Sequence record: OR427838.1
Source of the DNA: Escherichia phage fDHCT2
DNA length: 64,000 bases
Reading direction: 5' to 3' (one strand)
In this document: positions 7,199-9,773 of the stretch, in pieces
How the letters are laid out: the number at the start of each line of letters is the position of its first letter
Numbering within the stretch: the stretch's first letter is position 1
Translations under genes and position numbers: made by a program
The notes under the pieces: generated by a model
Database searches by the model: none
The model's input: only the letters and a program-made list of their open reading frames with translations
Told to the model about the DNA's origin: nothing

Positions 7199-7422
7199 TC
7201 TTTCACCTTCATCATTTTTGCTATAACACTATGAACAGCCTGGATTCGTTTGTTGAACTCAGACCCTTCAAGACCTTTTTCAGTACTCAGCGCACCAATA
7301 ATAACGAACAGCAATCCAAATGGGATGGCCAGGATTAAAAGGCACACGATAAACAGAACTAATGTAATATTGGCCAGGATATCAGAAACAGCATTACGAA
7401 ATTTATTCATTAAAGAACCCAC
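7195..7422 (-). CDS. small membrane protein
   Basis: 75 aa with a long hydrophobic stretch LANITLVLFIVCLLILAIPFGLLFVIIGAL. Confidence 0.5.
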   Translation of the reverse strand: MGSLMNKFRNAVSDILANITLVLFIVCLLILAIPFGLLFVIIGALSTEKGLEGSEFNKRIQAVHSVIAKMMKVKE

Positions 7423-7531
7423 ATATTAGTTACAACAAATAACCATTGAGCAGGATACTCAACACCCATAATACGCACTGCATCGTTCAGAGATTCAGCT
7501 AGAGCATAGAATGTGTAGCCATAAAAATTAA

Positions 7532-8005
7532 TCATTTAAGCGATTTCCTCAGTTGTTTTTTAAATGAATCGACCATTTGTTTCTTTGTGTCAGATTCATT
7601 ATAAGTCATTCCATGTGAAAGCATTTCAGCAATCATTTCTTCCTTACCTAATCTACTGAACTCTTTGGTTTTATCAGGAACGAAATTAGGATGGATATTG
7701 TTTTCAGTGTAATCAGATTTCAGATAGACCAGCAAATTCTCTAACCATTCGAGGTAGTCAACGTTTTGACCTTTAAGACCAGAACGGTTGAACTTATGCT
7801 TCATTTGTCCTTCTGCAGCATTGCACAGGTTACATAGTAAACCACGAACCTTACCGGCTTTCGGCCCATTCAATTCATGGTCGTGGTCAAGGTGGTTACT
7901 TTGAACATCAGGGTTTAATTCACGTTTACAAATCAAACACTTACCATGTTGTACATCATAAAGTTTTTGTTTTTCTTCTTTGTATAGTTTGCCAGTCAAC
8001 AACAT
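7532..8005 (-). CDS. 49: Endonuclease VII (Holliday-junction resolvase) gp49
   Basis: 157 aa; MLLTGKLYKEEKQKLYD...HLDHDHELNGPKAGKVRGLLCNLCN matches T4 gp49 from memory. Confidence 0.9.
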   Translation of the reverse strand: MLLTGKLYKEEKQKLYDVQHGKCLICKRELNPDVQSNHLDHDHELNGPKAGKVRGLLCNLCNAAEGQMKHKFNRSGLKGQNVDYLEWLENLLVYLKSDYTENNIHPNFVPDKTKEFSRLGKEEMIAEMLSHGMTYNESDTKKQMVDSFKKQLRKSLK

Positions 8006-8134
8006 AATAAACCCTTACCATTATTAGATAAGGGTATTTATTAATATCCTAATAGTTTAGCAGTGCAACTTAGCACTAACAACAATCCGAATAAAACGAC
8101 TCCGACCCAAAATACCGTAATAAGATCATCCATA

Positions 8135-8311
8135 TCAGACCCCGTAGAACGAGCGATGTAACCGTTTAAATTGACGAATCATCTTTTTGGTAGGACGGGT
8201 GTATAACCCTACACAGGTGGCCATAAACTGGTCAGTAGGACTTCCTTTGATAAGAAGTTTCCAGACCTTGTCACCATTTAACTTTTCAGTATAGACTAAT
8301 ACAGTTTTCAT
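8135..8311 (-). CDS. small hypothetical protein (58 aa)
   Basis: ATG ORF below the 60-aa track cutoff, in an otherwise unannotated 600-bp stretch. Confidence 0.3.
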   Translation of the reverse strand: MKTVLVYTEKLNGDKVWKLLIKGSPTDQFMATCVGLYTRPTKKMIRQFKRLHRSFYGV

Positions 8312-8484
8312 CAGAACGCCTTATCAGCAAAGCGAAGTTGGGCTTCAAGCCAATGGATATAATCCGCTGCAGCAGAAATCAAAGCAGATTCTTCATCAGG
8401 TAACTTACGAGAATCCGACAACTCGTAAAGCGAATGTTCAATCAGACGGCCTTTATGACGGCCGATTTCAATTTTGGTACTCAT
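8311..8484 (-). CDS. small hypothetical protein (57 aa)
   Basis: ATG ORF; stop overlaps start of the next small ORF. Confidence 0.3.
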   Translation of the reverse strand: MSTKIEIGRHKGRLIEHSLYELSDSRKLPDEESALISAAADYIHWLEAQLRFADKAF

Positions 8485-8600
8485 ATCCAAACCCCATATC
8501 GATTAAATCATTGTTTGAAGGTTCATTATACTCTATTTCGGAATCGTTGTAAACCGGTTCCTCTGGCTCGGTAGTTTTCCACCGAGCGACATACCATGGC

Positions 8601-8909
8601 TTAACGGTCACACCACCAACTACTTACTTCAAAATCAGGTTCACCGTGTTCCCAGTACCAAGGGCCGACTGGGTGCCAATCGCCATGTTCATCTTCTTCA
8701 AATTCTTCAGATTCAAGCCCAACATATTGCCATTGGACTTCATAAGCAGTACCACCGATTACAACGGTGTTCTCGCCATATGGGTGAGCTACAGCAAAGT
8801 CTATACCTTCTGCTTTAGCCAGCCAAACCATATATTCGTATAGTTTATATTCCAGGTCATCTTCGATGCCATCACCTAGAAAAATGGTTTGTTCGTTTAA
8901 TTCAATCAT
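8601..8909 (-). CDS. hypothetical acidic Trp-rich protein
   Basis: track ORF starts with a non-ATG codon; first ATG gives MIELNEQ... (102 aa). Confidence 0.45.
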   Translation of the reverse strand: MIELNEQTIFLGDGIEDDLEYKLYEYMVWLAKAEGIDFAVAHPYGENTVVIGGTAYEVQWQYVGLESEEFEEDEHGDWHPVGPWYWEHGEPDFEVSSWWCDR

Positions 8910-9063
8910 TTGAAGTTCCAGAATGAAGCACCAACCAGAAATAAAGGCCAACAAATCATAGACGTCAGCCACCAACAAAAATCACCGGAATCATCTAATT
9001 TAGCTAGGGTCTTAGCATAACCAATACCGATGATAAGATATAAAACAACCAACATTAATTCAA

Positions 9064-9327
9064 TCATTTGAAATAAGCTCGCAGTTGGTCAAAGCCACCA
9101 ATATGACTTCCATCCGGAGCAAATACCTGAGGCATAGTCAAACCCACCTGAGATTCGCGACCAAGAGCAGTCAAGAGTTCAGCAATCTTCTCATCATCAA
9201 ATACACCTTTTTCAGGCATCACGTTAATGAATTCGTAAGGTTGTTTCTTAACATCAAGCAGACGTTTGGCATTATCACAGAAAACACAGCGGTGAATATT
9301 TGAATCGTAACCATAAACTTTAAACAT
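9064..9327 (-). CDS. nrdC: Glutaredoxin NrdC
   Basis: 87 aa; MFKVYGYDSNIHRCVFCDNAKRLL with CxxC; matches T4 NrdC from memory. Confidence 0.85.
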   Translation of the reverse strand: MFKVYGYDSNIHRCVFCDNAKRLLDVKKQPYEFINVMPEKGVFDDEKIAELLTALGRESQVGLTMPQVFAPDGSHIGGFDQLRAYFK

Positions 9328-9328
9328 T

Positions 9329-9580
9329 TTAAATTCCTAATATTTGTTTGAATGCTTCAGAACGGTCGAGTTCTGTTCCATATTTTTCCATGTGCTCATA
9401 TTTTAAATCATACACATCAGACAGTATATTATTATACGAACGAGTTAAAGCAGATTTTAAAACTGAATAACTGTCCGGAAATTTACCATGCTCTTTATAA
9501 TAAGCTAGAGTAAGTTCGCGGACTGCCTTATCGGCAGCCTCTACATATTCTTTACGCTTTGCCATTTTCGTCTCGCTCAA
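9329..9580 (-). CDS. hypothetical protein
   Basis: 83-aa ORF. Confidence 0.5.
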
Positions 9581-9773
9581 ATCGGTGTTTACAATGACGG
9601 CATTTGTACTGAAGCGGATTGTGTCGCCAACAAGTCAATTGGACCTGTTCAGTTCCACATTCAGGACAGTTTGGAACATTCTTAGAAGCTCGTTCGCGAC
9701 GTTCTACAATTTTAATAATTTGATTCCAATCAGGAATAGTTTGGTCGATATCATCGGCTAATTGGTATTTCAT
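9552..9773 (-). CDS. zinc-ribbon protein
   Basis: CPECG...CRHCKH two CxxC pairs. Confidence 0.5.

Follow-up and report, generated by a model that had tools for sequence, protein, structure and literature searches.

The closest described systems come from bacteriophage T4. Barth, Powell, Trupin and Mosig (Genetics, 1988) reportedly described a T4 gene 49 leader with a late promoter and a hairpin that sequesters the ribosome-binding site (RBS). In their model, long early transcripts are said to mask the gene 49 ribosome site, and late transcripts, which start inside the stem, to expose it. Sequestration of the RBS in T4 late genes that lie on polycistronic early or middle messages has been reviewed, with Barth et al. 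1988 cited for gene 49 (PMC2988022). A device of the same class is also found in T4 soc, e, I-TevI and others (PMC2988022). A second well-described element is the neighboring pin gene. The 161-aa T4 PinA protein is an experimentally established inhibitor of E. coli Lon; it binds Lon and blocks ATP-dependent proteolysis, and a PinA–Lon structure has been named as a goal (PMC8835725).

The window analyzed here is a stretch of 64,000 nucleotides from Escherichia phage fDHCT2 (OR427838.1). When 801 bases around the interval 8005–8600 were compared with phage records, 86 matched; the top match was Escherichia phage IME08 (93.9%), and further JS98-like members of the Tevenvirinae, from Dhakavirus and Gaprivervirus, came next. 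By this comparison, the window is a JS98/IME08-like T4-type phage at approximately 94% identity. All genes in this region lie on the minus strand of the window, with an equivalent orientation in the relatives and in T4, where the gene order is nrdC, 49.3, 49.1, pin and gene 49. The features assigned to the locus are as follows.

7532..8005, minus strand: gene 49, endonuclease VII (recombination/packaging), 157 aa; Pfam Endonuclease_7 and Endonuc-dimeris, phrog_423

8011..8035, minus strand: gene 49 leader hairpin; from folding, the match to the T4 leader and covariation

8035..8042, minus strand: late-promoter-like box AATAAATA; 7/8 match to the T4 late consensus TATAAATA

8041..8133, minus strand: candidate 30-aa hydrophobic micro-protein; from the ORF list and insert boundaries

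8135..8311, minus strand: 58-aa DUF7279/phrog_3272 gene; from Pfam, PHROGs and selection

8311..8484, minus strand: 57-aa mini-Pin; from phrog_9092, Pfam Inhibitor_I24 and selection

8468..8611, minus strand: gp49.1 homologue, 47 aa, GTG start; phrog_2382

8525..8553, minus strand: candidate sigma-70-like promoter match; TTTACA-17-TATAAT, 11/12

8601..8909, minus strand: gp49.3 homologue, 102 aa, which bounds the interval; phrog_4203

The homologue of 7532..8005 is annotated as gene 49 in IME08, JS98 and T4. The original prediction stated that no ORF of at least 60 aa lies in 8005–8600, and this is correct. The longest in the ORF list (8311..8490, minus strand) encodes 59 aa from a TTG start or 57 aa from the ATG at 8484. 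The “gap” appears because the ORF list was cut off at 60 aa. Two coupled ATG ORFs of 58 and 57 aa had been noticed, and both are present, at 8135..8311 and 8311..8484, with base 8311 in common. On the minus strand the junction reads ...TTC TGATG AAA..., so that the mini-Pin stop overlaps the start of the 58-aa gene and the A of TGA is the A of the next ATG. The earlier inventory was right about these two ORFs and about a hairpin; it omitted gp49.1, which takes up the remainder of the interval, as well as the 30-aa ORF and the AATAAATA box. It had offered two alternatives, micro-proteins or regulation of gene 49. Both are true and already known, each for its own part of the interval. The first holds for the coupled ORFs, which belong to catalogued families, are annotated as coding sequences (CDS) in relatives and have frames under purifying selection; the second holds for the hairpin, which is orthologous to the T4 gene 49 leader and covaries across T4-like phages. 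The interval is thus ordinary for a T4-type phage: besides the well-known leader of gene 49, it contains three micro-genes of catalogued families and a plausible fourth. We are confident in the overall reading, namely small accessory genes followed by a gene 49 control element at the end of an nrdC-to-gene 49 unit. Three plus-strand ORFs (32, 35 and 46 aa) were dismissed, as the pattern of third-position changes agrees with the minus-strand frames and they are annotated in no related record.

The mini-Pin was assigned to phrog_9092 (E = 4.7e-41), which carries the label “inhibitor of host Lon protease”. The match to Pfam PF10465 (Inhibitor_I24; MEROPS I24, the family of T4 PinA) scores 29.2 bits, barely over the cut-off of 27, and is restricted to profile positions 88–136 of 136. 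BLASTP aligned mini-Pin residues 11–55 with T4 PinA residues 102–146 at 38% identity, and this stretch includes the motif AAxYIxWLExQ(L/I)xF(S/A)D. The full two-part architecture of PinA, an N-terminal domain plus a C-terminal helical region in approximately 140–160 aa, is absent. Compared with T4 PinA, the mini-Pin lacks the whole N-terminal domain (Pfam positions 1–87) and the 15-residue T4-specific tail. Its start overlaps 49.1 by 17 nt and is positionally orthologous to the T4 pin start. From this arrangement, the mini-Pin gene looks like pin minus the N-terminal domain, removed in frame. An AlphaFold2 model of the protein is a two-helix hairpin (pLDDT 89.7). A fold search of the PDB with this model gave nothing significant, and the matches were generic Rop-like helical hairpins (E ≥ 0.63, TM approximately 0.72).

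The 58-aa product matches Pfam PF23945 (DUF7279) over profile positions 1–53 of 53 with 60.2 bits (cut-off 24.5), and phrog_3272 with E = 1.5e-33. Its homologues are annotated as CDS in IME08 and JS98. RB69 ORF087c, RB32 ORF078c and JS98 orf76 (DUF7279/PHROG 3272) match it over the full length and occupy an equivalent position. The protein ends ...SFYGV and is followed by the insert that carries the 30-aa ORF, whereas JS98-type copies end ...SFYSTFEK. AlphaFold2 predicts a β-β-β-α arrangement, that is, a three-stranded sheet plus a C-terminal basic helix, with a pLDDT of 78 in one of five models only. Foldseek with this model against the PDB returned no significant match (best E = 0.76, chromodomain-like and NrdR-like topologies only). 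A literature search on DUF7279 found no paper on the family.

The 30-aa ORF would encode the hydrophobic, single-pass peptide MDDLITVFWVGVVLFGLLLVLSCTAKLLGY. One nucleotide separates its ATG from the stop of the preceding 58-aa gene (TGAtATG). A 94-nt insert holds the ORF, and the ends of the insert match those of the ORF together with its GGGG ribosome site. In the DNA search, the insert was found in 20 records at 95–98% identity, against 86 related records (approximately a quarter), and it occurs in Dhakavirus and in Gaprivervirus. Two records, Yersinia phage P8 and phage UPEC01, annotate the ORF as a CDS. The ORF is intact and hydrophobic in all seven copies examined. In these seven copies pN/pS is 0.64, with just 7 variable sites (0/4/3 by codon position). 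Searches of PHROGs and Pfam with the ORF gave no match. The candidate product would probably be a membrane peptide.

The gp49.1 homologue matches phrog_2382 over residues 1–47 (E = 1.3e-25) and is very acidic. The family is annotated as 49.1 in JS98 and T4 and is present in most T4-like loci. T4 gp49.1 (PHROG 2382) has an equivalent position and an equivalent overlap with the downstream pin start; the gene starts with GTG and encodes 47 aa here, whereas the T4 gene starts with ATG and encodes 51 aa. The gp49.3 homologue (phrog_4203, E = 6.8e-47) is annotated as 49.3 in IME08, JS98 and T4. The mechanical ORF list gives this gene as 125 aa from a TTG start (8601–8978), and homologues place the start at the ATG at 8909 (102 aa). 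This start overlaps by 4 nt with the stop of a 53-aa hydrophobic ORF (phrog_6756, 8906–9067), another gene of less than 60 aa that the ORF track would miss. Some labels in related records are out of line. The Pin-like gene of IME08 (L001, 1912–2130) is called from an upstream start (72 aa), out of register with its 57-aa homologues. In Yersinia phage P8 (L050, 52–201), the gp49.1 homologue is labelled “baseplate wedge subunit”, and several records label gp49.2 as “ribonucleotide reductase”.

To assess coding, pN/pS and the variable sites at each codon position were computed on the full-length copies that could be collected. For the 58-aa gene, pN/pS is 0.07 and the variable sites are distributed 3/3/24 over the three codon positions; for the 57-aa gene, the values are 0.21 and 8/4/20. 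The comparators are 0.14 for gp49 (an essential gene), 0.10 for gp49.3 and 0.47 for gp49.1. There are no internal stops in the scored copies of these genes. The small ORFs are annotated as CDS in IME08, JS98, SP18, P8 and UPEC01. Conservation of the reading frames in related phages was one check that the original prediction had named, with its absence as the refuting outcome; the frames are conserved and under purifying selection. Because the frames are conserved, selection is purifying and the changes are concentrated at third positions, we conclude from the sequence comparison that the 57-aa and the 58-aa ORF are both genuine genes.

The same data bear on a different view, in which the small ORFs are decaying remnants: an internal deletion would have left the mini-Pin as a pin pseudogene, the remaining ORFs would have arisen by chance, and the interval would effectively be a non-coding gene 49 leader. 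The mini-Pin does correspond to the last third of PinA only, its slot is highly variable in close relatives, with the mini-Pin wholly missing in some, and the 30-aa ORF has no family and a weak selection signal. However, the third-position bias and low pN/pS of the two coupled genes are comparable to those of essential gene 49. The length of the mini-Pin is also nearly constant: public protein data contain 12 clusters of 57–62 aa with 32 invariant positions. Its predicted fold is confident and autonomous, a 62-aa Pin with only the C-domain has arisen independently in a second lineage, and DUF7279 genes directly precede the gene 49 leader in several distant lineages of T4-like phages. We regard decay as very improbable.

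The second reduced Pin is encoded immediately upstream of gene 49 at 1775–1963 of L048, a distant T4-like contig with a gp49 that is 66% identical. It matches Inhibitor_I24 positions 88–136 with E = 4.5e-14 and is independent of the mini-Pin lineage. A further variant is seen in JS98-type relatives, which carry a 100-aa ORF between the mini-Pin and DUF7279 genes (JS98, L002, 1824–2126, minus strand; L004 and L006, 1481–1783; L007, 1396–1698); this ORF is not in the window. Its match to the PinA Pfam model falls in the N-terminal part (positions 3–74, 27.6 bits), and it is 28% identical to T4 PinA residues 6–79. Because of this match, we read pin as split in JS98-type phages, with the domains in permuted order and the C-domain first.

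In near-identical phages, a mosaic hot spot lies between 49.1 and DUF7279 (L050, L051 and L053, 358–630; L052, 500–640; L003, 1650–1780). This slot holds the mini-Pin alone in the window, IME08 and VR5. In JS98 and IME341, the mini-Pin is accompanied by the Pin-N-like ORF, and in P8, UPEC01 and SP18 by an unrelated 90-aa ORF. The slot is empty in PSD2002 and L003. Since these close relatives lack it, the mini-Pin is a dispensable, accessory gene.

The T4 pin gene itself appears to have been rearranged at its other end. The last approximately 15 residues of T4 PinA (MIQQYKRLHQMFYNT) are homologous to the C-terminus of DUF7279 (KKMIRQFKRLHRSFYGV) at both the DNA and protein level; the sites are 2898–2945 on the minus strand of T4 (L049), 1700–1746 and 1912–1959 in L013, and 8135–8185 in the window. 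The mini-Pin and the Pins outside the T4 group end ...FSDKAF, and the DUF7279 gene follows directly. L013, which has an RB32 ORF078c-type gene, carries both copies as a direct repeat of approximately 50 bp flanking its DUF7279 gene. The Pfam PinA model stops short of the T4 tail. Given the homology of the tail to the DUF7279 C-terminus, the other Pins that lack a tail and the direct repeat in L013, T4 pin looks like an in-frame fusion after deletion of most of the DUF7279 gene.

By analogy with PinA, the mini-Pin is most likely still a binder or inhibitor of the host Lon protease. We propose more tentatively, at rather less than even confidence, that it is a self-sufficient Lon-binding or Lon-inhibiting module, such that the C-terminal helical hairpin of PinA would be the minimal active part and the N-domain a separable accessory, and that the neighboring 30-aa ORF would be a further unannotated membrane micro-protein. 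A self-sufficient module fits with the JS98-type phages, because these encode the N-domain as an ORF of its own after the mini-Pin, and with the second lineage, because it has independently reduced Pin to the C-domain.

The original prediction had also placed a hairpin just upstream of gene 49, and it is indeed there, at 8035..8011 on the minus strand. It reads ACCCTTATC-TAATAAT-GGTAAGGGT, with the 5′ arm at 8035..8027, the loop at 8026..8020 and the 3′ arm at 8019..8011, and is followed by TTTATT and the gene 49 ATG at 8005. The 3′ arm holds the Shine–Dalgarno (SD) sequence AAGGG (8016..8012), and the gene 49 start lies 6 nt downstream of the stem. The minimum free energy is −14.1 kcal mol−1 (z = −2.3), and 5 out of 200 shuffles fold as well. 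The predicted stability is by itself modestly unusual; the comparative evidence lifts it above chance. For this comparison, the 50 nt preceding gene 49 were extracted from 46 IMG/VR loci, T4 and four GenBank relatives. Every leader of this set contains a stem-loop that ends 0–7 nt before the start codon. Covariation was scored on 29 distinct T4-like leader sequences, with gp49 identity down to 51%. Standard pairs occupy 88% of the cells in these 29 sequences, compared with 36–48% when the 3′ arm is slid by 1–3 columns. Compensatory changes are seen at five of the nine stem pairs; one position, for example, occurs as C-G, G-C, A-U and U-A. The observed covariation score was reached by none of 500 shuffles. 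An SD sequence (GAGG or AAGG) lies within the 3′ arm in all leaders listed. An Rfam scan of 7400–9400 (E ≤ 1) returned no family.

The AATAAATA box (8042..8035) abuts the stem and shares one base with it, the last of the box and the first of the stem. Directly 5′ of the stem, TAAATA does not vary in 29/29 aligned sequences. On the minus strand of 7400–9700, [N]ATAAATA occurs only here; ATAAATA occurs 15 times on both strands of the whole window. We infer that the box is a late promoter. The leader of T4 gene 49, AATAAATACCCTTATCTATTTAAGGTAAGGGTTTATTATG, is identical to that of the window except in the loop. The arms ACCCTTATC and GGTAAGGGT, the abutting AATAAATA box, the position and the distance to the ATG are all shared, and the loop is TAATAAT in the window and TATTTAA in T4.

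Other promoters were considered in the same region. The sigma-70-like match TTTACA-17-TATAAT lies within gp49.1, approximately 40 nt upstream of the mini-Pin start. The region contains 5 promoter-like sites, and 6.2 are expected from shuffles, so there is no excess. The hexamers and their spacing are also present in T4 49.1 and in the Dhakavirus relatives; this conservation may be driven by coding, because the hexamers encode conserved residues (PVY...YNEP). The site at 8525..8553 may be a by-product of coding, or it may truly act as an internal early promoter that serves pin through gene 49. A search of the minus strand of 7400–9700 for MotA-box middle promoters (TGCTT(T/C)A plus TAnnnT at the correct spacing) gave none that was convincing.

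We take the interval to be the promoter-distal end of a transcription unit of T4 type, which runs from nrdC to gene 49 on the minus strand. Its tightly packed genes encode small accessory proteins that are probably translationally coupled: gp49.1, the mini-Pin, the DUF7279 protein and probably the 30-aa peptide. The final approximately 45 nt would be the gene 49 control element. Following the T4 precedent, in long early read-through RNA the stem would pair the gene 49 SD with its upstream complement, and endonuclease VII would be poorly translated. Late in infection, the phage late sigma factor would use the AATAAATA box abutting the stem, and transcription would start approximately 6 nt downstream of the TAAATA box, at around 8029, inside the 5′ arm. 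Because such a start removes most of the 5′ arm, the ribosome site would be free in the late mRNA and gene 49 would be translated.

The hairpin could instead be mainly an intrinsic (rho-independent) terminator that ends early nrdC-to-pin transcripts, with gene 49 expressed from its own late promoter only. A terminator scan does flag it (9-bp stem, four G-C pairs, TTATTATGTT tail), and both this phage and T4 have a U-rich run after the stem. However, the U-tract is interrupted (UUUAUUAU), and in most other lineages the start codon directly follows the conserved stem with no U-run, for example GGTGAACCTATG and ATGACTCTAATG. The conserved elements are instead the SD in the 3′ arm and TAAATA at the 5′ arm. 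An intrinsic terminator has a conserved G+C-rich stem and uninterrupted U-tract; here G-C pairs make up 4/9 of the stem. Termination is unlikely as the conserved function, since most lineages lack a U-tract after the stem, and as the main role of this hairpin we consider it improbable. Partial termination may occur in the T4/Dhakavirus subgroup. Masking and late release of the gene 49 ribosome site is the reading that we prefer.

The locus differs from T4 inside gene 49. In the T4 record, gene 49 has two nested products, and the internal GTG start (Val53) of T4 gives the nested 12-kDa, 105-aa gp49 product, whereas codon 53 is GTT in the window (7849..7847). Early transcripts of this phage should therefore yield no short gp49 product. 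Codon 53 is GTT in 27 of the 36 relatives scored, and GTG only in T4 and L012. From these comparisons, the nested product appears specific to the T4 lineage, and the hairpin and late promoter appear general.

What these findings mean is mostly limited to correct annotation. A threshold of 60 aa for ORFs hides a run of real T4-type micro-genes. To our knowledge, no PinA–Lon structure exists. That a natural 57-aa form of PinA is under purifying selection suggests a location for the part of PinA that interacts with Lon, and the mini-Pin would be a convenient minimal construct for structural work on PinA and Lon. The gene 49 leader is conserved and can be recognized across T4-like phages by the signature of TAAATA plus stem.
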